Assembly (NCBI GenBank): GCA_964648765.1
Contig: CAZYLF010000001.1
Span: forward strand, 480,632-544,631
Reading direction: 5' to 3'
DNA length: 64,000 bases
Origin: an uncultured Candidatus Saccharibacteria bacterium
GTDB taxonomy: Bacteria; Patescibacteriota; Minisyncoccia; Phycocordibacterales; JACOZG01
Below are positions 3,813 through 43,030 of the stretch, piece after piece (the first letter of the stretch is position 1; every line of letters begins with the position of its first letter). The position numbers were made by a program, and so were the translations under genes. The notes under the pieces were generated by a model. It did not search any database. It was not told the DNA's origin and was given only the letters and a program-made list of their open reading frames with translations.

Positions 3813-5069
3813 TTGGGGCAAATGCGTCAAAGTACTTTACCCACCAAAACCCGCAAAGAAGCCCCAAATAATGAGGTGGCTAAAAATGCCAGTTTGTTGA
3901 TCCGAGCGGGATTTATCGCTAAGGAGCTATCCGGAGTCTACTCATATTTACCTTTAGGTCTTAAAGTTTTAAATAAAATAAATAATCTCATCCGTAAAGA
4001 GATGGAGGGTTTGGGCGCCACTGAAGTCCAGATGTCATCCCTTCAAAACATGGACACTTGGCGGCTGAGCGACCGTCACGAGCTTGATGTGTGGTTTAAA
4101 ACTAAACTTCGCGAGGGTGGTGAACTTGGTTTGGGTTGGACTCATGAGGAAGCGGTGACAACGATGATGAAGGATCACATTGGATCATATCGTGATTTAC
4201 CTCGGGCGATTTATCAAATTCAAACCAAGTTTAGGAATGAGGAACGCGCCAAGAGTGGACTCTTGCGTGGTCGAGAATTTTTAATGAAAGATATGTATTC
4301 ATTCCACGTAGATGAAAAAAGTTTGGATGAATTTTATGACAAAGTTAAAAGTTCATATTTAAAAATTTTTAAGGAGGTTGGTTTGGGTAAATCTACTTAC
4401 CTCACCGTGGCTTCAGGTGGCGCATTCTCTGAGTGGAGTCATGAGTTCCAAACTGTTTCTGAAACAGGTGAAGATACGGTTTATATCCAAGACGGGAGCG
4501 ACGTGGCGATTAATGATGAAGTTTATAGTGAGGAGGTGGCACAAAAGTTTGGTCTGGATCCAAAACGTTTAACCACTAAAAAAGCGATTGAAGTTGGTAA
4601 TATTTTTAAATTAGGCACACGTTTTAGCGAGCCAATTGGTTTGAAGTATGTAGATGAAAAATCAGAATCAAAACCAGTAATTATGGGTAGTTATGGTCTT
4701 GGGCCTTCGCGATTGATGGGAGTGATTGCTGAAACGCTGTCGGATGATAAGGGTTTGGTGTGGCCCAAGAGCGTGGCGCCATTTAAAGTTCAATTAATTT
4801 TGATAACCAAAAATAAAGACAGTGAGACTGTAAAAAAAGCGAACGAATTTTACGATAATTTGATAAAAAGAAATGTGGAAGTGCTATACGACGACCGTGA
4901 GGCCACCGCTGGCGAGAAGTTAGCCGATGCGGATTTATTTGGTATTCCGCATCGTTTGGTAATTAGCGATAGGAGTTTGGAGGCCGGCGGAGCAGAGTGG
5001 AAGGAGCGCACAGGGAGTGAGGCAAAGGTAATAAGTTTTGCGGAAGCGCTTAAAAAAATTAATGAATAA
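3813..5069 (+). CDS. proS: Prolyl-tRNA synthetase (short form, no editing insertion)
   Basis: N-terminal LLIRAGFI(A)KELSGVYSYLPLG resembles bacterial ProRS; class II motifs; 418 aa. Confidence 0.8.
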   Translation: MGQMRQSTLPTKTRKEAPNNEVAKNASLLIRAGFIAKELSGVYSYLPLGLKVLNKINNLIRKEMEGLGATEVQMSSLQNMDTWRLSDRHELDVWFKTKLREGGELGLGWTHEEAVTTMMKDHIGSYRDLPRAIYQIQTKFRNEERAKSGLLRGREFLMKDMYSFHVDEKSLDEFYDKVKSSYLKIFKEVGLGKSTYLTVASGGAFSEWSHEFQTVSETGEDTVYIQDGSDVAINDEVYSEEVAQKFGLDPKRLTTKKAIEVGNIFKLGTRFSEPIGLKYVDEKSESKPVIMGSYGLGPSRLMGVIAETLSDDKGLVWPKSVAPFKVQLILITKNKDSETVKKANEFYDNLIKRNVEVLYDDREATAGEKLADADLFGIPHRLVISDRSLEAGGAEWKERTGSEAKVISFAEALKKINE

Positions 5070-6126
5070 ATGGTTACAAAAAATTTATCGGGCGTTTTCG
5101 CCTGATATTGGTGTTGATTTAGGCACCGCCAACACGCTGGTGTATTTGGCAGGTCATGGGGTAGTAATTAATGAGCCAACCATTGTGGCGCTTAATGAAA
5201 AGACCGGCCGCCTGGTGGCGATCGGTAATGATGCCAAGCAAATGATCGGCCGCACGCCTGCGCACATTTCAGTGATACGCCCTTTGGTAGACGGCGTAAT
5301 TTCTAACTTTGAGATTACTGAAGAAATGCTTGCATATTTTATTCGTCGAGCGCGTAAAATGGATTCTAAAAAGTTTTTACGACCGAGAGTTTTGGTGGGC
5401 GTGCCATCGGGTATTACTAACGTGGAGATCCGGGCGGTGCGTGACGCGGTAAAAAACGCTGGCGCGAGAGAGGTGCACATTGTGGAGGAGCCAATGGCCG
5501 CAGCAATTGGAATTAAGATGCCGATCCATGATCCCGTGGGTAGTTTTATTGTGGACGTGGGTGGTGGCACTTCAGATATTGCCGTGATCTCTCTTGGCGG
5601 AATTGTGAAGTCAAAAAATTTACGAGTGGCCGGTGATCATTTAAATCGTGACATTATCGCTTATGTGCGAGATGAATTTAAAATTTTGTTAGGAGAGAAA
5701 ACGGCTGAGGAGGTGAAGCTTGCGATTGGCTCAATTTGGAATGAGGGTGAAGCGCTGGAGGCAATTGTGCGCGGTAGAGATTTGGTAACTGGTTTACCAA
5801 AAGAGGTGGTGCTCACCGATGCTGATATTAAAGAAGCAATTGCCAAATCAATCGTTCTCTTAATTGAGGGGGTTAAGGAGGTTTTGGAGGCTACCCCGCC
5901 AGAAGTAATTTCTGATGTGATGCATAAAGGTATTGTGCTAGTGGGTGGCGGTTCGTTGGTACGCGGACTTAGAGAAGTGCTTGAAAAGGAGTTAAAAATC
6001 CCTGTTCATATGTCTGATGACCCGCTTACCGCTGTTGTGCGAGGCACAGGTGTTGTGCTTGAGAGATTTGATAATTATGCAGAAATTTTAATTGAAGACG
6101 ATGACATTAGACAACAAGACGTTTAA
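5062..6126 (+). CDS. mreB: MreB paralog (actin-like, in mreBCD-mrdA operon)
   Basis: IGVDLGTANTLVY and DVGGGTSD motifs. ATG at 5062 overlaps the proS stop; the track ORF starts at an upstream TTG at 5038. Confidence 0.85.
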   Translation: MNKWLQKIYRAFSPDIGVDLGTANTLVYLAGHGVVINEPTIVALNEKTGRLVAIGNDAKQMIGRTPAHISVIRPLVDGVISNFEITEEMLAYFIRRARKMDSKKFLRPRVLVGVPSGITNVEIRAVRDAVKNAGAREVHIVEEPMAAAIGIKMPIHDPVGSFIVDVGGGTSDIAVISLGGIVKSKNLRVAGDHLNRDIIAYVRDEFKILLGEKTAEEVKLAIGSIWNEGEALEAIVRGRDLVTGLPKEVVLTDADIKEAIAKSIVLLIEGVKEVLEATPPEVISDVMHKGIVLVGGGSLVRGLREVLEKELKIPVHMSDDPLTAVVRGTGVVLERFDNYAEILIEDDDIRQQDV

Positions 6127-11787: not shown

Positions 11788-12222
11788 ATGCTAATTGGCG
11801 AATATCGACACACGATTGACGACAAAAAACGACTTTCGGTGCCGTCGGTGTTTCGTACCGAGTTGAAACAAAAAATTGTTATCACTCGTGGCTTGGATAA
11901 TTGTCTCTTTGTTTACCCTCTGCCAGCCTGGAAGCAGGTAGCAGAAAAACTCTCGCAACTATCAATGGGTACAGTAGACTCTCGAAGCTTTAATCGCTTT
12001 ATGCTTTCTGGCGCTGTGGAAGTAGAGCTAGACAGCATGGGCCGCATCTTGATCCCAGACTTCTTAAAAAGTTTTGCAGGCTTAAAAGTAAAGGTGGTTA
12101 TCGCTGGTGTATACGATCGCTTAGAGATTTGGGATGAAAAGCGTTGGCTTGAAAACACAATGCGCGTGGAGAAGATGGCTGATAGCTTAGCTCAAAAATT
12201 AGGTGAAGTTGGAGCAATATAA
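11788..12222 (+). CDS. mraZ: Transcriptional regulator MraZ
   Basis: Duplicated MraZ fold; first gene of the dcw cluster; GEYRHTIDDKKRLSVP. Confidence 0.9.
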   Translation: MLIGEYRHTIDDKKRLSVPSVFRTELKQKIVITRGLDNCLFVYPLPAWKQVAEKLSQLSMGTVDSRSFNRFMLSGAVEVELDSMGRILIPDFLKSFAGLKVKVVIAGVYDRLEIWDEKRWLENTMRVEKMADSLAQKLGEVGAI

Positions 12223-13120
12223 AAAACTTATGAGTCACGATCCAGTTCTTTTAAATGAAGTTTTAGTTGGCTTAAATCTTAGGTCTGGCGAAACATTTCT
12301 AGATGCCACACTCAATCGCGGTGGTCACTCAAAAAAGTTGGGTGAGGCACTTGAGGAAGGTGGACATCTTATCGGTATTGATGCTGATAGTGTGGCGCTA
12401 GGTGAAGCCAAAGAGAATTTGAGTAAGCTTAAATGCAAGAAAGATTTTTTACTTGGTAATTTCCGAAATCTCAAAAGCTTACTTAATATAGTTGGTGTTA
12501 ATAAAATTGACGCCGCACTCTTTGACCTTGGTTTAAGCTCACAGCAGTTAGCTGAAGGCGAGAGGGGATTCTCATTCCAACTTAATGGACCACTTAAGAT
12601 GACGTTGGGGCGAGAGGCGAGTGACGGGCTAACAGCCGAAGAAATTATAAATAATTGGGATGAAGAAAATCTGATCACAATTATTAAAAATTACGGCGAA
12701 GAAACATTCGCCAACTCAATTGCCCGAGCAATTGTGGATCATCGTAAATTAAAAGAGCTTAAAACTACTTTTGATTTAGTTGAAGTGATCCGAAGTGCGG
12801 TACCACATTGGTACCAAAAAAGAAGAATGCATTTTGCAACTAAAACATTTCAAGCTCTCCGGATGACAGTTAATGATGAACTCCGAACGCTTAGAGATGG
12901 GATGGAGGGCGCATGGGAGTTACTTACCTCGGGTGGCAGGTTAGCAGTAATAAGCTTTCACGGACTTGAAGCCAAAACAACCAAAATATTTTTTAAAGAA
13001 AAGGAGGCAAATGGTGAGGGTAGACAAACTCCTCGCAAAGCCATAAAGCCAACTCGAGAAGAAGTTATAAGCAATCCGCGCTCACGCAGTGCAAATTTAA
13101 GAATCCTAATAAAATCATGA
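12203..13120 (+). CDS. rsmH: 16S rRNA (cytosine1402-N4)-methyltransferase RsmH (MraW)
   Basis: HDPVLL...LDATLNRGGHS SAM-binding motifs; follows mraZ. Confidence 0.9.
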   Translation: MKLEQYKKLMSHDPVLLNEVLVGLNLRSGETFLDATLNRGGHSKKLGEALEEGGHLIGIDADSVALGEAKENLSKLKCKKDFLLGNFRNLKSLLNIVGVNKIDAALFDLGLSSQQLAEGERGFSFQLNGPLKMTLGREASDGLTAEEIINNWDEENLITIIKNYGEETFANSIARAIVDHRKLKELKTTFDLVEVIRSAVPHWYQKRRMHFATKTFQALRMTVNDELRTLRDGMEGAWELLTSGGRLAVISFHGLEAKTTKIFFKEKEANGEGRQTPRKAIKPTREEVISNPRSRSANLRILIKS

Positions 13121-13443: not shown

Positions 13444-15139
13444 CAGCCAGTGGCGATTGCGGTTTATCGCAATCATTATTCTTATTGGTGGAGTTGCTCT
13501 AATCTCAAAATTATTTTTTATAACTGTTGTGAGGGGTGAGCATTACGCAGATGAGGCTTCTCTCCAGCTTACTGGTGGGAGGAGCTATTTTAATCGTGGT
13601 TCAATTTTTTTTACTGAAAAAAATGGTAATTTGGTATCTGCCGCCACACTTCAGAGTGGTTACACTTTGGCCATCAACCCCACTTTTGTGCAAGACAAAG
13701 AAGAGTTATATGAAGCGCTATCGAAAATTGTAACTTTAGATCAGGAGTCATTTTTTAATAAAGCAAACAAAGCAAATGATCCATATGAGGAGTTGATCGC
13801 TCGCATTGATGAAGACACTGCAACTAAAATTAAGGAGCTAAAAATCTCTGGTGTGATTTTGGTGCCAGTCCGGACGCGCTTTTATCCAGGCGCGGATCAA
13901 GCGTCCCATGCTATTGGATTTATGGGTTATAAAGGTGAGGAGTTTGGTGGATTATATGGTCTTGAGAGGCAATATGATGAGGTGCTTAAGCGCAAACCCT
14001 CACTATCTTTTTCAGACTTTTTTGCACAACTTTTCGCCGGAGTTACTCATGGTGCACTTAGTGCTGGGGTGGCAGGTGAGGGGGACATCGTGACGACGAT
14101 TGAACCCTCGGTGGAAAGTTATGTGGAGAATGAGTTAAAGAGTCTGTTTGAAAAATGGAAGCCTAAACAGATTGGCGCAATTATTATGGATCCGCAAACA
14201 GGGGCAATAAAAGCCATGGCTGCATTGCCTACCTTTGACCCTGGCGCCAAACAAACGGACCTGAATATCTTAAAAAATCCACTGGTGGAAAATATTTATG
14301 AAATGGGTTCTGTTGTAAAACCGCTTACTATAGCTGCGGCAATAGATGGTGGGGCAATTACTTCTAAAACAAAATATGTAGATAATGGATCCCTCACAAT
14401 TGCAGACAGAAAAATTAGTAACTTTGATGGTAAGGCGCGAGGCGAGGTAACGTTTCAAGAAGTATTAAATCAGTCACTAAATACTGGCGCCGTGGAGGCA
14501 ATGCGAAGGTTGGGTCAGGTAGAGTTCCAGAATTATTTTTTTGCTCTTGGTTTAGAAGATAAAACTGGAATTGATTTACCTAATGAGGCAAAGGGTCTGT
14601 TAAAAAATCTAGATAGCGGGAGAGAAGTGGAGTTTGCCACCGCCTCATTTGGCCAAGGGATTGCCATTACTCCACTTGCTATTACCAGAGCCTTTGCTGC
14701 GCTCGCAAACGGTGGGTATTTAGTGACCCCTCACTTAGTGCAAAAAATAAATTATGACTCGCAGCTTAGTGATGACGTTACTCCAGAAAAGGGGAGGCAA
14801 GTTTTAAAAAAAGAAACCAGTGATGAAATTACCAAAATGCTCGTTGAAGTAGTAGACACAAGCTTGCTGAATGGTAAGGCAAAGAATGAGCATTATAGTG
14901 TCGCAGCAAAAACTGGAACAGCTCAGCTGGTTGCTAGCGGAGGCGGAGGCGGTTATTATAAGGATAGGCATCTCCATTCCTTTTTTGGTTACTTTCCGGC
15001 CTCTAAACCTGAGTATCTGATATTTATGTATATGGAGGACCCACAAAATGTGACCTATGCCTCACAAACTTTGGCTGACCCGTTTGTGCGTATTGTGAAC
15101 TTTTTGATCAATTATTATCAAATTCCTCCAGACCGCTAA
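13433..15139 (+). CDS. ftsI: Penicillin-binding protein 3 / FtsI-type transpeptidase
   Basis: SVVK (SxxK), KTGTAQ motifs, N-terminal TM, dcw context. Confidence 0.85.
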   Translation: MKSSSQWRLRFIAIIILIGGVALISKLFFITVVRGEHYADEASLQLTGGRSYFNRGSIFFTEKNGNLVSAATLQSGYTLAINPTFVQDKEELYEALSKIVTLDQESFFNKANKANDPYEELIARIDEDTATKIKELKISGVILVPVRTRFYPGADQASHAIGFMGYKGEEFGGLYGLERQYDEVLKRKPSLSFSDFFAQLFAGVTHGALSAGVAGEGDIVTTIEPSVESYVENELKSLFEKWKPKQIGAIIMDPQTGAIKAMAALPTFDPGAKQTDLNILKNPLVENIYEMGSVVKPLTIAAAIDGGAITSKTKYVDNGSLTIADRKISNFDGKARGEVTFQEVLNQSLNTGAVEAMRRLGQVEFQNYFFALGLEDKTGIDLPNEAKGLLKNLDSGREVEFATASFGQGIAITPLAITRAFAALANGGYLVTPHLVQKINYDSQLSDDVTPEKGRQVLKKETSDEITKMLVEVVDTSLLNGKAKNEHYSVAAKTGTAQLVASGGGGGYYKDRHLHSFFGYFPASKPEYLIFMYMEDPQNVTYASQTLADPFVRIVNFLINYYQIPPDR

Positions 15140-15145
15140 TTGCGA

Positions 15146-16444
15146 ATGTCCAAAAATTTAATTAAAAAAACCCTAGTATCTTTACTTGCGCTTGAGGCGC
15201 GTTTGGTGGTGCGTAAATACAAACCAAAAATCATTGGTGTTACTGGTAGCGTGGGCAAAACAATGGTTAAGGATGCGATTTTTGAAGTACTTAAAGATCT
15301 ACCCGGGGGAGTGGGCAAGAGCCAAAAGAGTTTTAATAGCGAGTTTGGTGTGCCTCTTAGTATTTTGCGAGTTGATAATCCCTGGGGCAGTGCGCTCGGC
15401 TGGTTAAAAAATTTAATTGAGGGTTTGGCTTTAATTATTTTCCGCTATCCATATCCAAAATGTTTGGTGCTTGAAATTGGCGTAGACAGGCCAGGCGATA
15501 TGCTGCGCACTTTGCGGGGGATCAAACTCGACGTGGCGGTAATTACCCGACTGCCCGACCTCCCGGTGCATGTGGAATATTTTAAAAGTAAGGAGGCGGT
15601 AATTGCAGAAAAATTAAAAATTATAAAAACTTTAAAACCATCTGGATATGTGGTGGCTAATGGTGATGATGAAAAGATCTGTGCTGGGTTAAAAGAGACA
15701 AGTAAAAAAGTTTTGTATTATGGTTTTAATGAGGGTGCGGATTATCTGCTTAGTAACGAGCATTTAATTTATGATGAGAATACTTATTGGCCAATGGGCA
15801 TGACGTTTAAGATTAATTATAAAGGCAATAGTTTGCCAGTGAGGGCAAAAGTTTATAGCAAAGAGCATGTTTTAGGACTTGCTCCAGCTTTAGTGCTGGC
15901 GGGCGAAAGTAATATGGAAATGTTGAAGGCGATCGATGCGATAGATAATTACCATCTGCCACCTGGACGCTTGCAGCCGCACAAGGGTAATAAAGATTCA
16001 ATTATTTTTGATGACACTTATAACTCGTCACCAGCGGCTTTAGAATCGGCTTTAACTATGCTTAGTAATTTACGTGTTTTGGGTCGGAGGATTGTGGTGC
16101 TTGGCGACATGATGGAGCTTGGGACTTATACCATGGAGGCACATCAAAATGCAGGAATCATGGCGAGTAACGTTGCCAACATAATTATTGGTGTGGGGAT
16201 GAGGGCTAAATATATTGTGGATGAAGCAGTAAAGAAAAGATTTGGTAAACGTAAAACCGCGCACTTTATTGAGGCCCTGGAAGCGGGGAAATACTTAGAA
16301 CGACTTTTAAAACCAGGTGACGTGGTGCTGGTGAAAGGTTCGCAGTCAATGCGCATGGAGCGGATTGTGGAGGAGGTAATGGCAGAACCTGCGCGCGCGC
16401 CAGAGCTCCTTTGTCGGCAAGAAGCAGAGTGGAAGAAGAGATAA
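15146..16444 (+). CDS. murF: Mur ligase family protein, likely UDP-MurNAc-tripeptide--D-Ala-D-Ala ligase MurF
   Basis: GVTGSVGKT P-loop of Mur ligases; size and position after ftsI. Confidence 0.7.
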   Translation: MSKNLIKKTLVSLLALEARLVVRKYKPKIIGVTGSVGKTMVKDAIFEVLKDLPGGVGKSQKSFNSEFGVPLSILRVDNPWGSALGWLKNLIEGLALIIFRYPYPKCLVLEIGVDRPGDMLRTLRGIKLDVAVITRLPDLPVHVEYFKSKEAVIAEKLKIIKTLKPSGYVVANGDDEKICAGLKETSKKVLYYGFNEGADYLLSNEHLIYDENTYWPMGMTFKINYKGNSLPVRAKVYSKEHVLGLAPALVLAGESNMEMLKAIDAIDNYHLPPGRLQPHKGNKDSIIFDDTYNSSPAALESALTMLSNLRVLGRRIVVLGDMMELGTYTMEAHQNAGIMASNVANIIIGVGMRAKYIVDEAVKKRFGKRKTAHFIEALEAGKYLERLLKPGDVVLVKGSQSMRMERIVEEVMAEPARAPELLCRQEAEWKKR

Positions 16445-16450
16445 TTTGAA

Positions 16451-16479
16451 TAAAAAAGCCACGCGATGTTTTGCGTGGC
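16451..16479 (-). terminator. Repeated A-tract + CCACGCnnnnGCGTGG hairpin terminator, copy 1 (minus strand; possibly bidirectional with murF)
   Basis: AAAAAAGCCACGCGATGTTTTGCGTGGC. On the minus strand this is a hairpin followed by a T-run, directly 3' of ORF 16507..16950. Confidence 0.65.
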
Positions 16480-16506
16480 AGTGTAAACTTACCGAAGTAA
16501 GCCGAG

Positions 16507-16950
16507 CTACTTGATCCAACCTTTCTGACGTCCCTCTGCGAGCACGGCACCATGTACATCTCGTGCCCTGTCCAGTTTCTCTTTTGAGCGCTCCCGCTCT
16601 TTCTTCCAAGCCTCCTTTTCTTTTCTGTCAGAGTGGTCGGTATAAAGTTCCAGTCTTTCAAGCGCCACCCCGGTGATAACTTTCTCAAAACCTTGACCGT
16701 GGCCACAACCGGGCTTCATGCACTCAACTTCTCCAGTGTTCATGTGCATTGAAAGAAATCCTGGCCAACCACATTTGCTGCATCTTTGGGGCAGGATTGG
16801 AATTTCAAACTCCACTAATGCAGCACCACCCTCAATTTTTTTGATTATGCCCACCCCAAGACCAGACCTCCCCGGTTTGATCTCGATTGGCTCCTTGGGT
16901 ATGACCTTTGTGCCCACCTTCATGACATTGGCGTTCAAATTCTTCGGCAT
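16507..16950 (-). CDS. Hypothetical protein with Cys-rich zinc-ribbon-like segment and charged C-terminal tail
   Basis: CSKCGW...ECMKPGCGHG cysteine cluster; GC content visibly above flanks; own terminator. Confidence 0.4.
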   Translation of the reverse strand: MPKNLNANVMKVGTKVIPKEPIEIKPGRSGLGVGIIKKIEGGAALVEFEIPILPQRCSKCGWPGFLSMHMNTGEVECMKPGCGHGQGFEKVITGVALERLELYTDHSDRKEKEAWKKERERSKEKLDRARDVHGAVLAEGRQKGWIK

Positions 16951-17061
16951 CTTTTGCTCCTTTCAGCGAGTTAATGAGCTATAATTTATGTTCTGACTCG
17001 TGCCAGACTCCAGTTAGACGTTAGCATATTTAGCGGAAAAGTCAAGCATAGTGAATATAAT

Positions 17062-17088
17062 AAAAAAACCACGCAATGTTTTGCGTGG
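17062..17088 (-). terminator. Repeated hairpin terminator, copy 2
   Basis: AAAAAAACCACGCAATGTTTTGCGTGG, directly 3' of ORF 17107..17469. Confidence 0.65.
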
Positions 17089-17106
17089 CGGGGTATTTGA
17101 TGTTGC

Positions 17107-17469
17107 TTACGGGGCGCATGAGTTCTCATCGTAAGGAATGGGGACCATTATCACCAAGCGATATCTCCACTCACTTGATGGGCCGGTATCATCATCAGTG
17201 TGAAGTCTGTAGATCTTCATACCTATCGGTGGATCAATTAATCTCTTGTTAATTTGCACAATCAGTTTGTTTGCAACTTCCTTCAATATTCCCTCAAGAA
17301 GCTCCGCTCTTTTTGTTAGCTGATTGTTATTATTTCTCAAACGCTCAAGTACTATGCTTCGTGGTGTGATCCACCCTGTTCCCATGTTCATGACTGCGTC
17401 CCAGTCATCATTAGTTACGATTTCAGCGGACAGCTGAAGTGAACTGCTCCTGTGGTAATGCTTCTTCAT
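17107..17469 (-). CDS. Hypothetical protein
   Basis: 120-aa ORF flanked by copies of the repeated terminator. Confidence 0.35.
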   Translation of the reverse strand: MKKHYHRSSSLQLSAEIVTNDDWDAVMNMGTGWITPRSIVLERLRNNNNQLTKRAELLEGILKEVANKLIVQINKRLIDPPIGMKIYRLHTDDDTGPSSEWRYRLVIMVPIPYDENSCAP

Positions 17470-17547
17470 CTTATGACTCCTTAAGTAAGTATTTTGTCCA
17501 ATCCGAAACCAACCCTAAAACTAATCTATAATAACAGGGGAGTCAAA

Positions 17548-17599
17548 TAAAAAAAGAGCTGGTCAGTTTCTCCCGTGGGAGTTACTAAAACCAGCTCTT
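17548..17599 (-). terminator. Rho-independent terminator with long loop
   Basis: AAGAGCTGGT...ACCAGCTCTT 10-bp stem with inner CTCCCgtgGGGAG hairpin. A T-run follows on the minus strand, 3' of ORF 17611..18291. Confidence 0.55.
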
Positions 17600-17610
17600 G
17601 TGATTAATTC

Positions 17611-18291
17611 TTAAACTTCTGAAGTTTCTTCTTCATCTTCGATCGCGTCTTCCTCGTCGTCATCCCACACATCAATGTAGTGAGCACGACCATCGCGGCA
17701 AACAAGAAGGAGGGAATGAAGAACTTCTCCCTTGCAAATATATTGCTCAATTGCAAAACCAACAGACGGCATCTCTTCTTTAATCTTGAGCGCCAGCGCT
17801 AAAACTCTAGAGGGGACGTAGCCATCGTAGGTTGCCAAGGCAATCATTTGCCACTTGCCTGGGTCCTTTTGTTTACGGCCGCTCAATAGGCCAAAACAAA
17901 TGATGGATAGAGCCAACCCAATTAGAAAGGTTGCACCGACCGTTATCGACACAAACCAACCCAGGATTGCCGGACCAAAGCAGAAAACGGCAACAAACAA
18001 AAGAGTGTAATCAACCACCACAAGAAGACGATCTAAGAAACTTGGTCTAACTTCACCACCAACTTGCGTTTGATACTTCCCAACTGATTCAACGGTGTAG
18101 GGGAGTACGTCGAGATACTGAAGTCCTTGTCGCAAGTAGGCGTCACTATTCTTGCTTTTCAAGGTGTCGTAACCAAGTTTCTCGGCAGCGTCCAAGGCAA
18201 AACTATTGCCTAGTTTACTACCTAAGTTTGCCAAATGGCCGTCCTCAGTTGGGACCATCCGTTCCAAGATACTCATATCGGGATCCATCAT
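17611..18291 (-). CDS. Hypothetical membrane protein (2 central TM helices, acidic C-terminal tail)
   Basis: Hydrophobic core LLVVVDYTLLFVAVFCF...FLIGLALSIICFGLL; DDDEEDAIEDEEETSEV tail. Confidence 0.4.
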   Translation of the reverse strand: MMDPDMSILERMVPTEDGHLANLGSKLGNSFALDAAEKLGYDTLKSKNSDAYLRQGLQYLDVLPYTVESVGKYQTQVGGEVRPSFLDRLLVVVDYTLLFVAVFCFGPAILGWFVSITVGATFLIGLALSIICFGLLSGRKQKDPGKWQMIALATYDGYVPSRVLALALKIKEEMPSVGFAIEQYICKGEVLHSLLLVCRDGRAHYIDVWDDDEEDAIEDEEETSEV

Positions 18292-18382
18292 TTTATCTCC
18301 TTTCCTTATCTCAATTTCGAATCAAAAAAACAATCTAGTCAAAGAGTAACGTATATTGTGCAGATAGTCAAATCCTTAGTAT

Positions 18383-18409
18383 AAAAAAACCACGCGATGT
18401 TTTGCGTGG
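18383..18409 (-). terminator. Repeated hairpin terminator, copy 3
   Basis: AAAAAAACCACGCGATGTTTTGCGTGG, directly 3' of ORF 18442..18789. Confidence 0.65.
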
Positions 18410-18441
18410 TGAGTGAACTATTATTACGATTCGGAAGAATT

Positions 18442-18789
18442 TTATTTTGTTTGGAAGATCATCACATCTCTGCCGTCGGGATCTTTAAGATAGAAGAATC
18501 TCATGGTGTGAGAATCAAGTATGGTCGTTTGAGGCTCGACGCCAAGTTGCTTTACAGTTTGAAGTGTAGCTTCAAGTGAATCTACTTCAATCAAAATTGC
18601 ATCACCCGTAAAAGCTGGTGACAGAAGATAAATCTCTACTACACAATTTGGGGAAAGTGGACCAACTTCATGATGCTTTGGACCACCATGTGCGTGTTCA
18701 TGTGTCGTTAGTCCAAGACTTTCATAAAACTGAGCAGTTTCTCTTCGGTCTGCCGCCCTAAAAACTACACCAGCAATCCGTGTTGCCAT
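18442..18789 (-). CDS. VOC-family (glyoxalase/bleomycin-resistance-like) protein
   Basis: 115 aa. Beta-alpha-beta-beta-beta pattern with His/Glu metal ligands (HEHAHGG...E); weak family-level call. Confidence 0.5.
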   Translation of the reverse strand: MATRIAGVVFRAADRRETAQFYESLGLTTHEHAHGGPKHHEVGPLSPNCVVEIYLLSPAFTGDAILIEVDSLEATLQTVKQLGVEPQTTILDSHTMRFFYLKDPDGRDVMIFQTK

Positions 18790-18873
18790 AGTTGCCTCTT
18801 TCGGTAAAAAATTTAATTAGAACCTAAAGACCAAATTTTTGCACCGAGTTTAACATTACTAAACCCCAAAAAG

Positions 18874-18902
18874 TTGTCAATATTAATACAGTTCTTTATA
18901 CT
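18874..18902 (+). promoter_or_regulatory. Sigma70-like promoter TTGTCA-17nt-TATACT (near-leaderless transcript)
   Basis: TTGTCA 18874-18879, TATACT 18897-18902, ATG at 18911. Confidence 0.45.
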
Positions 18903-18910
18903 TATTAATC

Positions 18911-19189
18911 ATGTCAGAATCTATCGAGCAACCTGAACTAATCTTGGAGCAAGGTTTAATTGATCAAGTTAGAGAGGCTTGGGCCGAGCGTATGGAAGAG
19001 ATTTATACTGATCCAAATACCCAAACTCCGCTCACCGAAGATCGTGTCGCTTTTATCGAAAAAATCAGGGGTGGTGAAAAAATTAACTGGAATACTTGGG
19101 AAGGGGATGCTTTGGTCAATTTGCCAATCATGCGGCGTTTACCAATCGACCAGATAGAGGCCTTAAGAAACTTGCTTTTGCACTTCTGA
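18911..19189 (+). CDS. Hypothetical protein
   Basis: 92-aa ORF with a good upstream promoter. Confidence 0.4.
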   Translation: MSESIEQPELILEQGLIDQVREAWAERMEEIYTDPNTQTPLTEDRVAFIEKIRGGEKINWNTWEGDALVNLPIMRRLPIDQIEALRNLLLHF

Positions 19190-19194
19190 TATTG

Positions 19195-19266
19195 TGACCC
19201 TACGCGGAATCGAACCGCGCTTTGAGCCTTGAGAAGGCTCCGTCCTAGCCGATAGACGATAGGGCC
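19195..19266 (-). tRNA. tRNA-Glu (anticodon CUC), CCA not encoded
   Basis: Hand-folded cloverleaf. Acceptor GGCCCTA/TAGGGTC (one GU pair); D-stem GTCT/GGAC; anticodon stem GAGCC/GGCTC with loop TTCTCAA (U33, CTC, A37); T-arm CGCGG-TTCGATT-CCGCG; discriminator A. Confidence 0.7.
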
Positions 19267-19360
19267 GTTTATTGACAGTTACAATAACATTTTTTAACTT
19301 TTCTGCAATTGGTGGCTTAGCTCTTTATTTTATTGCTTAGAGAACTTACAATTAATAATT

Positions 19361-20020
19361 ATGATCGAACACAAGAATATTAATGGTCTAGACTATTGGC
19401 AAAAAGGGGAGAAGCCGACAGTGCTAATTTTGAGTGGGATGCATGGCGATGAGTTTGGGGTTATTGAAGTGGTAAGGAATTATCTTGTTGCAAATGCGAA
19501 TATCTTACCAAACTTTCTCTATATTCCGGCTGTGAGCCCTAGTGCGGTACGTTTACGGACTAGAGTTAATGAGCGCGGCCTTGATCTCAACCGTTCATTT
19601 AAAGATTCTATTGTTGATCATGAAATTGATGCGATTAAGAAATTGCTTATGCCACATCGTTTTCAACTTTGTTTAGACTTTCATGAAGACCTTGAGCAAG
19701 TTAATGAATTTTATATGTACGATAGTGCTAAATTACCCGCTGATAATTTAGAAAAGTTGAGAGATAATTTACTTATAACTGGCGTAGAGTTATATTCCGG
19801 ACCAGATGACCCTCATGATTCAACTTTGAGTAATCACATTGAGCGAGGATATTTATCTTTACCTTTCTCTGAACATAAAGGTGAAAGTGGATTTTTTGGC
19901 ACATGGGCAAACCGAGCGGGGATTATTGAGAGAGAAGTAACGTTAGAAGTTCCAGGACAAGTGGCAGGGGAGTTAAAGAGCAAATTGGTAGAGGTGCTGT
20001 TTGGTTCCATAATGTTATAA
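19361..20020 (+). CDS. AstE/AspA-family (succinylglutamate desuccinylase/aspartoacylase-like, M14-type) zinc hydrolase, short form
   Basis: SGMHGDE (HxxE zinc site), DLNR and DFHE motifs in the spacing typical of the family. Only 219 aa, so the C-terminal domain is absent. Confidence 0.5.
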   Translation: MIEHKNINGLDYWQKGEKPTVLILSGMHGDEFGVIEVVRNYLVANANILPNFLYIPAVSPSAVRLRTRVNERGLDLNRSFKDSIVDHEIDAIKKLLMPHRFQLCLDFHEDLEQVNEFYMYDSAKLPADNLEKLRDNLLITGVELYSGPDDPHDSTLSNHIERGYLSLPFSEHKGESGFFGTWANRAGIIEREVTLEVPGQVAGELKSKLVEVLFGSIML

Positions 20021-20027
20021 TATTCAC

Positions 20028-22673
20028 ATGTCTTTGAAAGAAGCTGGGGTGCTTTGGTATCAGATGCCACTTAAGGTGGTAGAGGCCAAGCTGTTTTCAA
20101 ACTCGGTTGTTGGTCTTAATCACGCTCAAGTAGAGGCGCATCGCAGGCGTTATGGCGCCAATATTATTGAAGGTGGCAAACAACGGAGTCGGTTACTTCT
20201 ACTGTGGGATCAAATTAAAAGCCCTCTTGTTTTGGTGCTTTTTTTGGCGGGTTTAATAACTTTATTTTTAGGCGAGTACGCTAACTTTTTTGTAATATTT
20301 GCCGTGGTGGTGGCCAACACCGTGGTGGGCTTTACGCAAGAGGAGAAGTCCGCGCGAATTTTTAAAGATCTATCAGGCAATCTAAAATATTTTGTTCCAG
20401 TAATCAGGAATTCTGAAAAAAAGAATATTAATGTGGAGGAGCTAGTGCCAGGTGATCTAATCTCACTTTCTGCTGGTGAGCTGGTGCCGGCTGATGCGCG
20501 GCTGGTGGAATCTCGAAATTTGTCTGTAGATGAAGCGATTTTAACAGGGGAGTCGATGCCGGTTTCTAAAAACGCTCGGGAGATTGCTGAAGCTAATCGC
20601 ATTACTGATCAAATTAATATGGTCTGGAAGAGTACTTTAATTACTTCAGGCTCAGGTCTTGCCTTAGTAACCTCAATCGGCAGAGAAACAGAGATTGGTA
20701 AGATTGCTGAACTCACAGAAAGTTTAAATGAAACGGAAACGCCTTTTCAAAAAAGTATTAAAAAACTTTCATACTTCCTCACTTTAATTGTGACCGGCGC
20801 CACGCTCGTTATTTTTATTTTGGGTTTTGCTCGGGGAGTTCCATTTTGGGATTCATTACTCACTGCGATGGCTGTGGCAGTAGCAGCAATTCCTTCTGGC
20901 TTACCCATCGCCGTCACTGTGGTGCTCGCGTTTGGTGTGCAGTCTATTTTCCGTAAGGGTGGGCTAGTTAAAAATTTGACCGCTGTGGAGACTTTGGGAG
21001 GTGTAAGTACAATTATGACCGACAAAACAGGCACACTCACCAAGGCTGAAATGACAGTGGAGATTATTGCGCCGAGGAGTGATGTGATCTCTGACAGGCG
21101 TGATATTTTAGCTATGGCAATAGTGGCTACTGAAGGTTTTGTGGAAGCTGGTGAGAAGGTAAAAATAATTGGCCGACCAATCGAGCGGGCCATTATCAAA
21201 GCGGGTTTAGACATAGGGCTAAAGCAAACTGATTTATTGTCTGTAGAAAATCAAATTGATTTTCTCCCGTTTGATTCTCGTAGACGCTTTTCAGCTTCAC
21301 TTAATCAGAGTCTGGAAGGCAAACGTAAGCGTATATATGTCACCGGAGCCCCAGAGTTATTTTTAAATAAAGCTAAATATTATTATGTTGATGGCAAACC
21401 GAAACTGTTCAGTAAAATTCATCGTCAATTCTTTCATAACATTTTAAACACTCACGCTAAAAATATGGTGCGATTTGTGGCCACTGGTTACATTAGTGCC
21501 AATACTAAAAAAACTCTAGCGCACGATATGGAACTTGATGGTTTGGTATTTGGCGGTTTAATTGGTGTTAAAGACGAGATCCGTGCTGATGTGCGTGAGT
21601 CGATGCTTTTGGCGGAAAGTGCTGGCGCGCGCGTGGTGATGGTGACGGGTGACAATGAACTTACAGCCCTAGCCGTGGCTAAGGAGGTTGGGATTGGTGA
21701 GAATGACCTAAATGTGATATCGGGTGATGCTTTTGAAATTCCAGATAATGAACCGGTTAAACCTACAATAAACGAAACAAATGTTTTTGCCCGAATGCTC
21801 CCAGAGCAAAAGTTAAACTTACTCAAGTATTATCAGGCCGATGGTGAGATCGTGGCCATGACGGGGGACGGCGTAAATGATGCGCCGGCACTTAAGCATG
21901 CAGACATTGGCATAGCGCTTGGCTCTGGCACCGCGGTGGCTAAGGCTGCTTCAGATATGGTTCTTGTAAACAACAGTTTTAGCACGATTACTGCGGCTAT
22001 AAGAGAAGGACGAAGGATTTTAGATAATTTAAAAAAGATCGTTGCCTACTTACTCTCGACTGGTTTTAGTGAAATTGTGCTGGTGGGTGGAGCGTTACTT
22101 TTTGGCGCACCGATCCCGCTCTTTCCGATTCAAATAATTTGGAACAATATTATTGGTGAAGGTCTTATGACCTTTGCTTTTGCTTTTGAAGATGCTGAGG
22201 ATGACGTGATGAAGCGTAAACCTAAGCAAGCAGATCTTCGCCGCGTACTTACCCCTAATTTAATCTTTTTAATTATCGTTATTGCTACGATTACTGGATT
22301 AATAAGTTTGCTCACCTTCCTCTTTTTATTAAAAAATGGCATGCCGATTGAAAAATTACGGAGTATCATGTTTGTGATTCTCTCACTTGATTCACTTTAC
22401 TTCTCATTCTCACTTAAAAATCTTAAGCGTCCAATTTGGAAGATTAAACCATTCTCCAATCATTACTTAGTGGCGAGTTTTTTTGCTAGTCTGGGGATTT
22501 TATCCCTAACCTTTATTGTTCCTGGATTAAGTAAAATTCTTAGTCTTGTGCCACTTTCCTTCGCAGAAGTATTGATGATTATTGTGCTTGGCCTAATCAA
22601 TTTACTCTTAATTGAGGTAACTAAATTCATTAGTTTTTCATCTGGTTGGTTTGATGATAAGATGAGCCGATAA
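20028..22673 (+). CDS. P-type cation-transporting ATPase (type II, Ca2+/Mg2+-like)
   Basis: DKTGTLT phosphorylation site; TGES, MVTGDN and GDGVNDAPALK motifs; about 10 TM helices; 881 aa. Confidence 0.9.
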   Translation: MSLKEAGVLWYQMPLKVVEAKLFSNSVVGLNHAQVEAHRRRYGANIIEGGKQRSRLLLLWDQIKSPLVLVLFLAGLITLFLGEYANFFVIFAVVVANTVVGFTQEEKSARIFKDLSGNLKYFVPVIRNSEKKNINVEELVPGDLISLSAGELVPADARLVESRNLSVDEAILTGESMPVSKNAREIAEANRITDQINMVWKSTLITSGSGLALVTSIGRETEIGKIAELTESLNETETPFQKSIKKLSYFLTLIVTGATLVIFILGFARGVPFWDSLLTAMAVAVAAIPSGLPIAVTVVLAFGVQSIFRKGGLVKNLTAVETLGGVSTIMTDKTGTLTKAEMTVEIIAPRSDVISDRRDILAMAIVATEGFVEAGEKVKIIGRPIERAIIKAGLDIGLKQTDLLSVENQIDFLPFDSRRRFSASLNQSLEGKRKRIYVTGAPELFLNKAKYYYVDGKPKLFSKIHRQFFHNILNTHAKNMVRFVATGYISANTKKTLAHDMELDGLVFGGLIGVKDEIRADVRESMLLAESAGARVVMVTGDNELTALAVAKEVGIGENDLNVISGDAFEIPDNEPVKPTINETNVFARMLPEQKLNLLKYYQADGEIVAMTGDGVNDAPALKHADIGIALGSGTAVAKAASDMVLVNNSFSTITAAIREGRRILDNLKKIVAYLLSTGFSEIVLVGGALLFGAPIPLFPIQIIWNNIIGEGLMTFAFAFEDAEDDVMKRKPKQADLRRVLTPNLIFLIIVIATITGLISLLTFLFLLKNGMPIEKLRSIMFVILSLDSLYFSFSLKNLKRPIWKIKPFSNHYLVASFFASLGILSLTFIVPGLSKILSLVPLSFAEVLMIIVLGLINLLLIEVTKFISFSSGWFDDKMSR

Positions 22674-34615: not shown

Positions 34616-35894
34616 GATTTAAAGCGTTATTTAAACGAGTAATTGTATCATTCTTGCCTAGAACTTCTGCCACAGTAAATGGGTCAGGTGACTTCTCTTT
34701 GCCAGTTAGGGCCACGCGCATTGGCCAAAGAACCTCCCCTCTCCCCTTCTCATCTGCGTAGGGCATTATCGCCTCTTTAATTTTTTCTTTTGTAAATTGA
34801 GCTTCTGGAATTGGTTCTAATAATTTAATTATTTCTGTAAAGTGTTCGGAATTCTTGAGCATATCTTTTTCAATCTTTGGTGAGCTAAAAAAGTATTCTA
34901 ATTCGCCGGCTTCCTTCATCAACTTAATATCACCAAAATTATTAATTCTTTCTCTAACTATCGGTAAAACTTTTTCTGGTAGTTTAGTGCCATACCAAGA
35001 TTCGCAAATTTTTGAAAAGTTATCGTCGCTTAACTTTTTAATATATTCGCGGTTAAACCAGTTTAGTTTTTCAGGATTAAAAATTGCTGGAGATTTTTGC
35101 ACTTTTGTTAAATCAAAAACTTGCACAAGTTCATCCCGGGTAAAAAGTTCTTGCTCAGTGCCAGGATTCCAGCCAGTCATAGCCACCATGTTAAGTAGGG
35201 CCTCGGGTAAGTAGCCAGTATCCCGGTAACTTGTAACAGGTAAAGCTCCGCGGCGTTTAGAGAGCTTTAATTTATCTGGGCCCAGTACTAGTGGTAAATG
35301 TGCGTACACCACTGGCGTTGCCCCAATTGCTCTGGCAATTAAAATTTGTCTTGGGGTGTTTGAAACGTGATCGTCCCCCCTGATTACATGGGTCACACCC
35401 TCGTCAAAGTCGTCCACCACAACTGCGAGGTGAAAGAGTGGTTCATTAATATTTTTAGCGAGTACAAAATCACCCAAATCAGTTGTGTTAATTGTGATCC
35501 CACCTTTTATTTCATCTTGAAAAGTGATGTCGATGTTTGGATTTCTAAATCTCACAATCTCCTTAATTTCTCCGCTGCCATCTTTAGAAGCTTCTTTAGA
35601 AATGTAGGCTTTATCTTCAGCGATTAATTTTTGTAGAACTTCCTTGTGCCGCTCTACATGCTCACTCTGGCGATAAAATTCGTCATAATCTAGCCCAAGC
35701 CACTTAAGAGATTCCAGAATATTTTCTTCATTTTCTTTTGTGGATCTGGCTCGGTCTGTGTCTTCAATCCGCAAAATAAATTTACCAACATGTTTACGCG
35801 CATAAAGATACGAAAATATTGCCGTGCGGTAAGAACCGGAGTGGAGTAACCCCGTTGGACTAGGAGCAAAACGGGTAATAACTTTAGGATTCAT
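34608..35894 (-). CDS. gltX: Glutamyl-tRNA synthetase (short form)
   Basis: RFAPSPTGLLHSGS (HIGH-like), KLSKR; 428 aa. Confidence 0.85.
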   Translation of the reverse strand: MNPKVITRFAPSPTGLLHSGSYRTAIFSYLYARKHVGKFILRIEDTDRARSTKENEENILESLKWLGLDYDEFYRQSEHVERHKEVLQKLIAEDKAYISKEASKDGSGEIKEIVRFRNPNIDITFQDEIKGGITINTTDLGDFVLAKNINEPLFHLAVVVDDFDEGVTHVIRGDDHVSNTPRQILIARAIGATPVVYAHLPLVLGPDKLKLSKRRGALPVTSYRDTGYLPEALLNMVAMTGWNPGTEQELFTRDELVQVFDLTKVQKSPAIFNPEKLNWFNREYIKKLSDDNFSKICESWYGTKLPEKVLPIVRERINNFGDIKLMKEAGELEYFFSSPKIEKDMLKNSEHFTEIIKLLEPIPEAQFTKEKIKEAIMPYADEKGRGEVLWPMRVALTGKEKSPDPFTVAEVLGKNDTITRLNNALNLG

Positions 35895-37011
35895 GTTCTA
35901 GGGCTAACGTTAAGATTTCTTTGGCAATTACTTGTCCAGCATCCTTGCGAGCAAAGTTTGCCAAGGCTTGAGACATTTGATCACGAAGAGTTTGGTTCGT
36001 CATGAGTCGGTTAATTTCTGAAGCGAGAACGGAAGCCGTAAGATTGTCCTGCTCAATTACTACTGCGCCTCCTGAAGCGGCAAAGGTGAAAGCGTTGGTG
36101 CGCTGATCGTGACTAATTGGCTCTGGGATCGGGATAATAATTGAAGGTAAACCCCAAAGAGCAATTTCAAAAATTACTGATCCAGCGCGCGAGACCACCA
36201 GCGATGAGGCCCCGGCCGCCATTTTGATAGCGCTTGAGTCTAAGTAATCAAAAAGTTTATAACGATCTTTGTTTGGGTTCTTCTCTAAGATTACTGAAAC
36301 TCGCTTTTTTATATCCTCATAATTATCTTTACCAACTTGGTGAATAACCTGATACTTCTCAATAATTTGTGGCAAAGCATCAATAAGAGTTTCGTTAATT
36401 GCGCCCGCCCCTTGCGAGCCGCCAGTTACAAAAACGATCGGTAAGTTTTTATCTAAGCCTAAGAATTCATGAGCGCCATTTTTAATTGGCGTCATGATTT
36501 CAGTGCGGATCGGATTACCGGTGATTGCTGTTTTGTCGGCGGGGAAATATTTTGATGCTTCAGGATAAGAGATGGCTACTCGTCGGGCAAATTTTGCAGA
36601 CCACAAATTTACTTTGCCAGGATGAGAGTCTGACTCATGAATAATGACTGGGATGCCAAGAAATCTCGCTGCAAATAATGTGGGGAAGCTCGCATAAGCA
36701 CCCTTACTAAAGATTACATCTGGGTAAATACGGTAAAGCTTCCAAAAGGCACCTAATATACCAAAAAAAGTTTTGACTCCATCGGTAAAGTTTTTTAAAG
36801 AAAAGTAGCGACGCATTTTGCCGGCTGAAACTTTTACGAAGGTGATGTTGTTTTCATAAAGTAATTTTTCGTTGTAAGGATCTGGCGCAAAATAATAAAG
36901 CTTAGGTTGAACTAATTTTTGTTCGCGGATCTGATTATTGATTTCTTCAGCAACGGCAATGATTGGGTAAAAGTGCCCACCTGTGCCACCGCCAGTAAAT
37001 ACTATTTTCAT
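35884..37011 (-). CDS. murG: UDP-GlcNAc:lipid I GlcNAc transferase MurG
   Basis: MKIVFTGGGTGGHFYP G-loop; GT28 fold. Confidence 0.9.
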   Translation of the reverse strand: MKIVFTGGGTGGHFYPIIAVAEEINNQIREQKLVQPKLYYFAPDPYNEKLLYENNITFVKVSAGKMRRYFSLKNFTDGVKTFFGILGAFWKLYRIYPDVIFSKGAYASFPTLFAARFLGIPVIIHESDSHPGKVNLWSAKFARRVAISYPEASKYFPADKTAITGNPIRTEIMTPIKNGAHEFLGLDKNLPIVFVTGGSQGAGAINETLIDALPQIIEKYQVIHQVGKDNYEDIKKRVSVILEKNPNKDRYKLFDYLDSSAIKMAAGASSLVVSRAGSVIFEIALWGLPSIIIPIPEPISHDQRTNAFTFAASGGAVVIEQDNLTASVLASEINRLMTNQTLRDQMSQALANFARKDAGQVIAKEILTLALEHES

Positions 37012-39172: not shown

Positions 39173-39184
39173 AGATTTAATAGA

Positions 39185-42261: not shown

Positions 42262-42354
42262 ATCGTTCACCGCCTGCTCTCGTGCCAAAGTGAATCAGCT
42301 GGAGTGTTCAGAAGATGATTGAACATTGGCAGCGTTACAGAAAGGAAACTGATC

Positions 42355-42540: not shown

Positions 42541-42566
42541 AGAGGCCACTGACGAAGCTTTATGCA

Positions 42567-42636
42567 AAGGCGCTCGGATGAATAATCCAAGCGCCTTTTT
42601 TATTTCCCGATTTTTATGCCTAACTCTTTAAGTTGC
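42567..42636. repeat. Duplicated segment: terminator hairpin + relic of the aspS 3' end (copy of 43648..43712)
   Basis: About 85% identity to 43648-43712. The minus strand would still encode ...QLKELGIKIGK* (the aspS C-terminus) but has no upstream ORF. Confidence 0.7.
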
Positions 42637-43014: not shown

Positions 43015-43030
43015 GTTACTCAAAAAAACA

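Follow-up and report, generated by a model that had tools for sequence, protein, structure and literature searches.

Predicted one-gene units with a shared hairpin between murF and tRNA-Glu in a Patescibacteria chromosome: a comparison with the PeSL cassettes of phages

Promoter-early stem-loop (PeSL) cassettes occur in the hyperplastic regions of T4-type phages and combine a stem-loop terminator with a sigma-70 promoter on the flanks of orphan genes (Arbiol et al. 2010, PMC2839356; see also Comeau et al. 2014, PMC4122927). These cassettes recombine with each other, and mini-circles have been demonstrated (PMC2839356). A literature search found PeSLs described in phages only. A comparable locus is described here in the chromosome of an uncultured Candidatus Saccharibacteria bacterium, a groundwater member of the Patescibacteria (CPR) with a tiny genome of the Paceibacteria type. 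The stretch analysed, called the window, is 64 kb long; together with 10 kb upstream, about 74 kb of a source contig of at least 553 kb were read. At 16445-19193, between murF and the 3' end of tRNA-Glu(CTC), lies an accessory-gene hotspot with five lineage-specific genes (ORF1 to ORF5). Three of these genes are followed by copies of one hairpin element of about 37 nt, called T1.

The locus resembles a PeSL region in several ways. The hairpins lie between the genes and would form composites with candidate sigma-70-like promoters. The flanked genes are orphans in a variable region between conserved blocks, and the regulatory ends are more conserved than the genes between them. Gain, loss and reordering could be explained in both cases by recombination between the ends, without a dedicated recombinase. 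There are also differences. The host DNA is a Patescibacteria chromosome and not a phage. The shared part (hairpin and T-run) is about 37 nt long and falls short of the roughly 100 bp, promoter included, of PeSLs, and there are three copies instead of about 50 per phage genome. Empty-site comparison and mini-circles were demonstrated for PeSLs.

The explanation favoured here, with a probability of roughly 0.55, is that the block consists of self-contained expression cassettes that were gained and rearranged by PeSL-like recombination at terminator/promoter junctions. The locus is best placed under PeSL- or moron-like regulatory modularity in a Patescibacteria chromosome. Phage morons (PMC3594210) are also self-contained promoter-gene-terminator units of accessory or unknown function that sit between conserved genes and deviate in composition. 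Unlike the present units, they are not defined by one shared terminator, and the block has neither a prophage context nor phage homologues.

The three T1 copies all lie within 2 kb of each other (Table 1). A 25-mer search of the 64 kb with up to three mismatches returns exactly these three copies, and none in 100 shuffled sequences. On the minus strand the consensus is (G/A)CCACGC-AAAACAT(C/T)-GCGTGG(C/T), followed by six or seven T residues. The hairpins stand 27, 17 and 31 nt past the stop codons of ORF1, ORF2 and ORF4. An earlier note on this DNA had reported four minus-strand genes after murF, three of them followed within 40 bp by a near-identical hairpin with a T-run; the ORFs (16507-18789) and the three T1 copies agree with this description.

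T1 has the features of an intrinsic terminator, namely a stable GC-rich stem-loop and a U-tract on the strand of the upstream gene soon after its stop, and it probably acts as a Rho-independent terminator of the minus strand. The stems are 7-9 bp long and fold at -12.6 to -15 kcal/mol in a 61-nt context (z -3.3 to -4.2), and none of 200 shuffles is as stable. For the hairpin with its U-tract, z ranges from -3.3 to -5.0 over all copies. The stem varies in a compensatory way, with a closing pair of G-C in one copy, G-U in another and A-U in the third. Taking copy 1 as the reference, the copies are 78-89% identical to it, and the identity spans the 8-nt loop and about 7 nt 5' of the stem. This is more than selection for termination alone would produce. 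The favoured explanation takes the three copies to descend from one sequence and not to be products of convergence.

T1 is absent from the other ~72 kb of the genome read (the rest of the window and the 10 kb upstream). A degenerate 27-mer covering all known T1 variants has no match in the JGI metagenomes and none in IMG/VR. The core 20-mer has four matches in 185,579 species genomes, against about two expected by chance, an estimate for this database size. One of these (L001) lies within a coding region, and two (L002 and L004) lie in GC-rich Acidobacteriota sequence. The fourth, at L003 4329-4348 in a metagenome-assembled genome labelled Saccharibacteria, is suggestive, but it is not counted as evidence because the number of matches is at chance level and homology is unproven.

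The L003 match has some features of its own. The core is present with the loop exact (CCCCACGC-AAAACATC-GCGTGGGG) and has a T-rich tail, and it stands as the terminator of an orphan gene of about 100 aa. This orphan converges on an aminoacyl-tRNA synthetase gene of class II (Asp/Lys/Asn-type). The surroundings, trpS ... [orphan genes] ... scpA-scpB, resemble those of an island of the window described below (island B).

If T1 were the ordinary, commonest terminator of this genome, the four minus-strand genes could simply be native. This is scarcely probable and already largely refuted, in agreement with the cassette-like reading of the earlier note. Ten or more further terminator hairpins of the window all differ in sequence, and T1 is absent from the DNA read outside the block. 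The genes are missing from the locus in all relatives, and ORF1 to ORF3 are near-orphans. What speaks for an ordinary terminator is the native-like composition of ORF4 and ORF5, together with the limited extent of the search, ~74 kb of a source contig of at least 553 kb.

Evidence that the regulatory ends belong to particular genes can be provided by homologues in other genomes. ORF1 has a single homologue among 5.8 billion proteins (P0122, 56% identity). It is encoded on L016, the 630-bp contig Hain_H51_01um_R2_584670 from Hainich groundwater well H51. L016 matches the window over 542 nt at 66.6% identity, from the 5' untranslated region (5'UTR) through the ORF to the hairpin. Between ORF1 and P0122 dN/dS is 0.19, indicating purifying selection, and dS is about 1.6, so that synonymous sites are saturated. 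P0122 is nevertheless followed by a T1-type hairpin, GCCACAC-AAATCATC-GTGTGGC, with 26 of 29 bases identical (7 of 8 in the loop). One inner stem pair has changed from G-C to A-T on both sides, a compensatory change.

The sequence directly past the T-run of L016 corresponds to another part of the block. Its 62 nt are 80.6% identical (blastn E = 7e-11) to window 17495-17556, with 85% identity over 48 nt; this is the P2 module, which precedes ORF2. The P2-type promoter follows T2, the hairpin of ORF3, in the window and a T1-type hairpin in L016. P2 thus stands behind two different hairpins, and what adjoins the ORF1 unit is not the same in the window and in L016. Regulatory ends appear to have been exchanged between units.

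A second case is provided by T2, which folds at -26 kcal/mol (z = -4.9). The closest ORF3 homologue (L020, 34% amino-acid identity) has a hairpin 3' of the gene with the geometry of T2 and 31 of 46 identical bases. It is the single best T2 match over 528,850 positions, the next best having 26. In the T2-type hairpins of three family members, 92.6% of cells are paired and seven pairs have changed on both sides, although aligned hairpins tend to look compensatory anyway.

The terminators travel with their genes, T1 with ORF1 and T2 with ORF3. The proposal of the earlier note, that the units each carry their own terminator and were serially acquired, is therefore a fair reading. By these comparisons the non-coding ends seem to be functional modules that are kept more strongly than the proteins between them, with boundaries at the hairpin base or the T-run. 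The key comparative evidence comes from two short homologous loci, and the mechanism proposed below is putative.

By prediction, each of the four minus-strand genes forms a unit of its own, in which a sigma-70-like promoter region and a ribosome-binding site precede the ORF and an intrinsic terminator follows it. A GGAG-type ribosome-binding site precedes each of ORF1 to ORF4. In all three internal spacers TTGACT occurs 9-19 nt past the T-run, with TAnnnT 16-17 nt further on; these candidates score below the threshold of a consensus scan. The three candidate promoters (P1, P2 and P3) cannot be aligned with each other. ORF4 has a divergent promoter region in common with ORF5.

Table 1. Features of the locus from murF to tRNA-Glu(CTC), with positions in the window.
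Feature	Coordinates	Strand	Description
murF	15140..16444	+	Left border of the variable spot, conserved; last gene of mraZ-rsmH-ftsL-ftsI-murF; Pfam Mur_ligase_M/C
T1 copy 1	16449..16485	-	GCCACGC-AAAACATC-GCGTGGC + T6; ends ORF1; fold -15 kcal/mol, z = -4.2
ORF1	16507..16950	-	147 aa; beta-rich N-terminal part, Cys4-type zinc-ribbon motif, basic C-terminal helix
ORF1 promoter/5'UTR	16951..17058	-	TTGACT-N16-TAACGT candidate, GGAG ribosome-binding site; predicted promoter activity
T1 copy 2	17059..17095	-	GCCACGCAA-AACA-TTGCGTGGT + T7; ends ORF2
ORF2	17107..17469	-	120 aa; without recognisable family
P2 module	17495..17556	-	T-run + TTGACT + ORF2 5'UTR
T2	17554..17599	-	ORF3 terminator (predicted); long bulged hairpin, stems of 11 bp + 3 bp + 4 bp, then T7
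ORF3	17611..18291	-	226 aa; two transmembrane helices, acidic tail; divergent member of an uncharacterised two-transmembrane family of ~220 aa
ORF3 promoter/5'UTR	18292..18379	-	Two TTGACT boxes, GGAG ribosome-binding site; predicted
T1 copy 3	18380..18416	-	ACCACGC-AAAACATC-GCGTGGT + T7; ends ORF4
ORF4	18442..18789	-	115 aa; single-domain glyoxalase/VOC (vicinal oxygen chelate) family protein
ORF5	18911..19189	+	92 aa; without family; stops 4 nt short of the tRNA 3' end
tRNA-Glu(CTC)	19194..19266	-	Right border of the variable spot; 3' end toward the block; ARAGORN + Rfam

The arrangement of the window is identical across four independent assemblies from three sequencing runs. Because these agree, it is not an assembly artefact. 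The closest homologues of murF are found in Patescibacteria (83%, 57% and 52% identity), and the best matches are of the Paceibacteria type (Vogelbacteria, Nomurabacteria). Gene order 5' of murF is the same in relatives. Both murF and aspS have TTG starts, and neither gene is on record as called.

Gene content at the murF-tRNA spot differs in every relative, and ORF1 to ORF4 are absent there. For instance, the closest relative (L008-L013; 83% murF identity), which comes from well H52 of the Hainich groundwater, retains mreB ... mraZ-rsmH-ftsL-ftsI-murF in this order and, further on, a P-type ATPase. Between murF and the ATPase it has a 131-aa orphan on the minus strand, tRNA-Glu(CTC), and a helix-turn-helix (HTH)/SocA-Panacea gene with a 127-aa gene. 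The last two form a toxin-antitoxin-like pair, and the 131-aa orphan has an A-run and hairpin of its own, different from T1. That the block genes lack synteny in relatives, as the serial-acquisition proposal implies, is thus what the comparison finds.

The tRNA gene is the other constant of the locus. In L008 tRNA-Glu(CTC) comes after one orphan gene beyond murF, and in L014 and L019 (51% and 57% murF identity) it lies 30-31 nt 3' of murF. The contigs of the 52% and 57% relatives stop about 160-220 nt past murF. In all relatives examined murF is split from mraY. The split is hence ancestral to the clade, and the ancestral neighbours are murF and tRNA-Glu. In the window mraY, ftsW and murG are found at 35884-39172, on the strand opposite to the murF block. 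The earlier note had placed the insertion at the break in the division and cell wall (dcw) cluster. The block does lie directly 3' of murF, but the insertion point is the junction of murF and tRNA-Glu, and the block did not break the cluster. ORF5, the tRNA and the exchange of the promoter module had escaped that account.

The block shares some features of genomic islands that lie next to a tRNA. It abuts the 3' end of a tRNA that is directly beside murF in relatives, its content is variable, and three of the five genes have atypical codons. It differs in three points: no integrase was found, the tRNA 3' end is not directly repeated at the far border, and the block is only 2.7 kb long. No tRNA-derived 10-mer occurs in 15001-21000 besides the tRNA itself. 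An island integrated at the tRNA was rejected on these grounds, the missing tRNA-fragment repeat in the window and the missing integrase.

The orientation of tRNA-Glu(CTC) varies. It is on the minus strand in the window and in L019 (5651-5724) and on the plus strand in L008 (12002-12073) and L014 (11335-11409), changes which imply repeated small inversions at the junction. In L008, at 11886-12246, the tRNA is ringed by fragments of itself: about 115 nt upstream lies a 13-mer of the 5' end, an inverted fragment occupies 12133-12146, and a 12-mer of the 3' end is found at 12234-12246. They resemble the scars that past integration or rearrangement would leave at this tRNA.

The composition of the block is uneven. 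Against a mean GC content of 0.425 +/- 0.031 in 49 core genes, ORF1 has 0.495, ORF3 0.464, ORF2 0.435 and ORF4 0.425. The elevated GC claimed for the whole block is thus clear in ORF1, weaker in ORF3, and not seen in ORF2 and ORF4. GC at third codon positions (GC3) is 0.52 in ORF1, 0.48 in ORF2 and 0.27 in ORF4. Codon adaptation was compared with length-matched segments of the core genes of the window. ORF2 has the most atypical codon usage of the block, ranking in the lowest 0.2% (p = 0.002), followed by ORF1 in the lowest 2.4% (p = 0.024) and ORF3 in the lowest 9% (p = 0.09). Pooled, ORF1 to ORF3 have a codon adaptation of 0.66, under every core gene of at least 300 codons.

ORF4 (22%) and ORF5 (17%) are unremarkable in codon adaptation. 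The atypical composition expected by the earlier note is therefore found in ORF1 to ORF3, while ORF4 lies within the range of the core genes. By its composition ORF4 looks native, and the claim that it too was acquired is not supported. Elsewhere in the window, the gene for a PEP-CTERM-motif protein at 46224-46988 has the highest GC (0.524) and GC3 (0.61) of the window genes and was possibly acquired.

Locally repeated hairpins also bound two further small-gene islands in the window, with repeats called D1 and D5. Island B, at 42319-43713 between scpA and aspS, contains the 74-nt repeat D1 at 42562-42635 and 43640-43713 (88% identical). It has two units, each made of a small two-transmembrane gene, a hairpin and the last 11 codons of aspS. 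The two genes (42319-42540 and 43423-43620) are paralogues with 35% identity (E = 3e-9), and D1 is the stretch that has been kept best within a segment that was duplicated or imported. The aspS tail orphaned at 42600-42635 has four differences from the live tail. All are synonymous, as would be expected if an imported or xenologous segment had brought in the end of a diverged but functional aspS. Two more small membrane-protein genes lie between the units.

Island B makes segmental duplication a live alternative in this genome: a gene with T1 might have been duplicated in tandem, after which the coding parts were replaced or diverged and the hairpin was kept by selection for termination. The D1 repeat follows two paralogous genes, which indicates that such a route exists here. 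For the murF block this origin is unlikely. ORF1 (zinc-ribbon type), ORF2 and ORF4 (VOC fold) have no similarity and differ in predicted fold, and paralogy was rejected for ORF1 to ORF4 as a set because no similarity was found among the four. GC3 differs sharply between the three T1-bearing genes, and a second genome also has T1 with its ORF1 homologue. Nor would selection acting on the stem explain why the loop is identical.

Another way to obtain such a row of genes is insertion directed at hairpins by an enzyme. T1 and T2 would then be folded recombination sites, and an integron-integrase-like enzyme (acting on attC) or an HUH/Y1 enzyme (as in the IS200/IS605 transposon family, or RAYT, the transposase that goes with REP repeats) would be encoded elsewhere. 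The likeness to integron cassette arrays is evident: a one-directional row of unrelated single genes, each with an imperfect palindrome at its 3' side, and a module boundary at the palindrome edge. All four units share one orientation, and boundaries fall at the 3' base of the hairpin, the T2|P2 junction of the window and the T1|P2 junction of L016 sharing sequence from the T-run on. A loop kept at 7 of 8 positions across saturated divergence further suggests sequence-specific recognition.

Several features make this insertion route improbable. Pfam scans of the larger ORFs in the 64 kb gave no integrase, transposase or HUH protein and no other recombinase domain, and none was seen among the called genes of the 10 kb upstream. 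Integron parts are likewise missing from the locus: intI, attI and attC core sites are absent, with no GTTRRRY/RYYYAAC at the hairpin borders on either strand. T1 measures 37 nt, compared with 57-141 nt for attC, and the units have promoters of their own, so that the locus does not qualify as an integron. A spreading system should also have left more copies, and T1 is absent from the public collections searched.

T1 could also be a regulatory signal of the 3' untranslated region, bound by a protein or a small RNA through which ORF1, ORF2 and ORF4 are regulated together. This would be compatible with any origin of the genes, and the loop is kept in all copies and in L016 beyond the needs of termination. 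It is a quite improbable explanation of the repeat. Rfam gives no family for T1 (its only match at the locus is the tRNA), there is no candidate binding protein known, and ORF3, in the middle of the block, lacks T1. A shared signal would also leave unexplained how unrelated genes got the same 37 nt.

The conserved loop and flank might finally belong to a miniature mobile repeat that landed independently 3' of three genes and terminates transcription by chance. Elements of the repetitive extragenic palindromic (REP) and bacterial interspersed mosaic element (BIME) type are typically short palindromes that recur in the intergenic DNA 3' of genes. T1 is likewise a short GC-rich palindrome, repeated at 3' intergenic sites and able, by prediction, to stop transcription, and its copies have the 78-89% identity given above. 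A mobile repeat of this kind is nevertheless very improbable. The aligned flanks contain no target-site duplication, and there are no terminal inverted repeats beyond the hairpin, so that T1 would not be classed as a REP or a miniature inverted-repeat transposable element (MITE). Its three copies are local, none occurs in the other ~72 kb, and no sign of a RAYT-type enzyme was found. T1 is also kept with the ORF1 gene, at the same position, in another genome.

Under the favoured explanation, recombination between regulatory ends, the spot between murF and tRNA-Glu would accumulate self-contained one-gene units. With T1 at its end, a unit would be insulated from the promoter that comes next. 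A distance of 13 nt separates copy 1 from the stop of murF, which converges with ORF1, and this copy would keep ORF1 transcription from entering murF antisense. Units would be gained or reordered by recombination at the junction of hairpin, T-run and promoter. Incoming DNA with a unit ending in a T1-type hairpin would recombine with a resident T1, leaving one T1 copy on each side of the insert. The resident T1 was most likely the terminator of the native-looking ORF4, where T1 probably stood first. Joining might be carried out by RecA on about 35 nt of homology or by an enzyme encoded elsewhere, both the mechanism and the order of events being presumptive.

Junctions of the form hairpin, T-run, TTGAC are also found in other small-gene islands of the window and in L014. 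Given its conservation, the loop might also be recognised by its sequence, either by a recombinase or by a regulator.

Several points weigh against this explanation. The evidence for module exchange comes from one 630-bp contig. The T1 copies have only the hairpin and T-run in common, since P1, P2 and P3 differ, and do not match the length shared by PeSLs. RecA-dependent recombination has a lower length limit, to which 37 nt come close. The relatives are all too distant to show ORF4 and murF with a single T1 between them, the state that insertion with duplication would presuppose. The four independent assemblies contain no structural variants of the strain; every contig with exact window proteins has the same arrangement, and neither strain variants nor empty sites were found. 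The repeated terminator of island B follows two paralogues, so segmental duplication can give rise to repeats of this kind here as well. The T1 search covered ~74 kb of the source contig, some 480 kb less than its full length.

The proteins themselves agree with what the earlier note had read from them, a zinc-ribbon motif in ORF1, two transmembrane helices and an acidic tail in ORF3, and a glyoxalase match in ORF4. The C-x2-C...C-x4-C(GH) motif of ORF1 is invariant in the homologue. ORF1 has no Pfam, PHROG, PADLOC or NCBIfam match, and its structure model (pLDDT 42) is too poor to use. ORF4 matches PF00903 Glyoxalase over residues 5-109 (E = 5e-5, 24.1 bits against a cut-off of 20.6); no match to it was found in the PDB by sequence. 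A combined query of ORF2 and ORF3 returned ORF3 itself only. By these searches, ORF1 to ORF3 would rank as near-orphans.

The family of ORF3 has 227 representative clusters at E <= 1e-3 in a full HMMER scan. The AlphaFold2 model of ORF3 has a pLDDT of 88.6, and Foldseek finds no match to this fold in the PDB; no Pfam family was found in 33 members. Loci of the family were retrieved with a 10-sequence subset of the alignment. Its motifs are LGY, PFT.ESV, VPEFAL, DPFLVV and VW.EP.F, of which the window ORF3 has lost DPFLVV and EP.F while gaining the acidic tail. Family genes are solitary and set between housekeeping genes. They often lie shortly 3' of a tRNA on the same strand (Ser-GCT, Ile-TAT twice, Arg-TCT), as at L020 414-1396, L029 1667-3061, L031 1829-2746 and L028 488-3103.

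A phage, defence or known-RNA origin of the block was considered and rejected. The block proteins have no match in the phage (PHROG) and defence (PADLOC) libraries, ORF1 and ORF3 have no relatives in IMG/VR, the ORF3 family has no tblastn match in phages or plasmids, and Rfam recognises the tRNA only.

The second island with a repeated hairpin, island C, occupies 57367-59468. D5, a 39-nt minus-strand hairpin terminator by its sequence, is found at 57367-57405 and 59430-59468 (90% identical) and flanks an insert of about 2 kb. The insert splits a GT4/5 glycogen-synthase-like gene from a GH57 gene, and the two were probably adjacent before. It contains small plus-strand genes, including those for a zinc-ribbon-like protein of 87 aa and a half-size T2SSF (PilC/GspF-like) protein of 233 aa. 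Its gene-less left end has a long perfect hairpin at 57468-57512 (GGCCAGCGCAGGA ... TCCTGCGCTGGCC) with no Rfam match.

A similar pair of minus-strand terminators is found in L014, the relative with 51% murF identity, at 16785-16835 and 17301-17345. Both have the stem CCCCAGA...TCTGGGG with different loops, and each is followed by TTTTATTTG(AC). The pair flanks a 129-aa orphan in a variable region.

Some other genes of the window concern the cell wall. About 20 kb off, on the opposite strand, the cell-wall cluster has its second half at 35884-40646, made up of D-Ala-D-Ala carboxypeptidase, mraY, ftsW and murG and placed directly 3' of scpB and ahead of gltX. None of murC, murD and murE was seen in the window. 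Two MreB paralogues are less than 5 kb apart, at 87-1103 and 5038-6126, and after the second come mreC and a gene of the PBP2 type.

The tiny genomes of Patescibacteria contain few mobile elements that can be recognised, yet a large share of their genes are lineage-specific orphans, whose entry and movement are poorly understood. As an unlikely but not negligible extension of the present case, Patescibacteria may gain and reshuffle orphan genes by using exchangeable regulatory ends as recombination handles, or, if the conserved loop is a recognition site, may have hairpin-directed cassettes with a recombinase acting in trans. If true, either would provide a general route for the turnover of orphan genes in ultra-small genomes that lack classical mobile elements. 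In practical terms, a repeated terminator in a metagenome-assembled genome can flag an accessory hotspot and a likely assembly breakpoint. If general, the favoured explanation would make recombination at regulatory hairpins a testable route of gene turnover and would extend the shuffling of PeSLs, described in phages, to cellular genomes.

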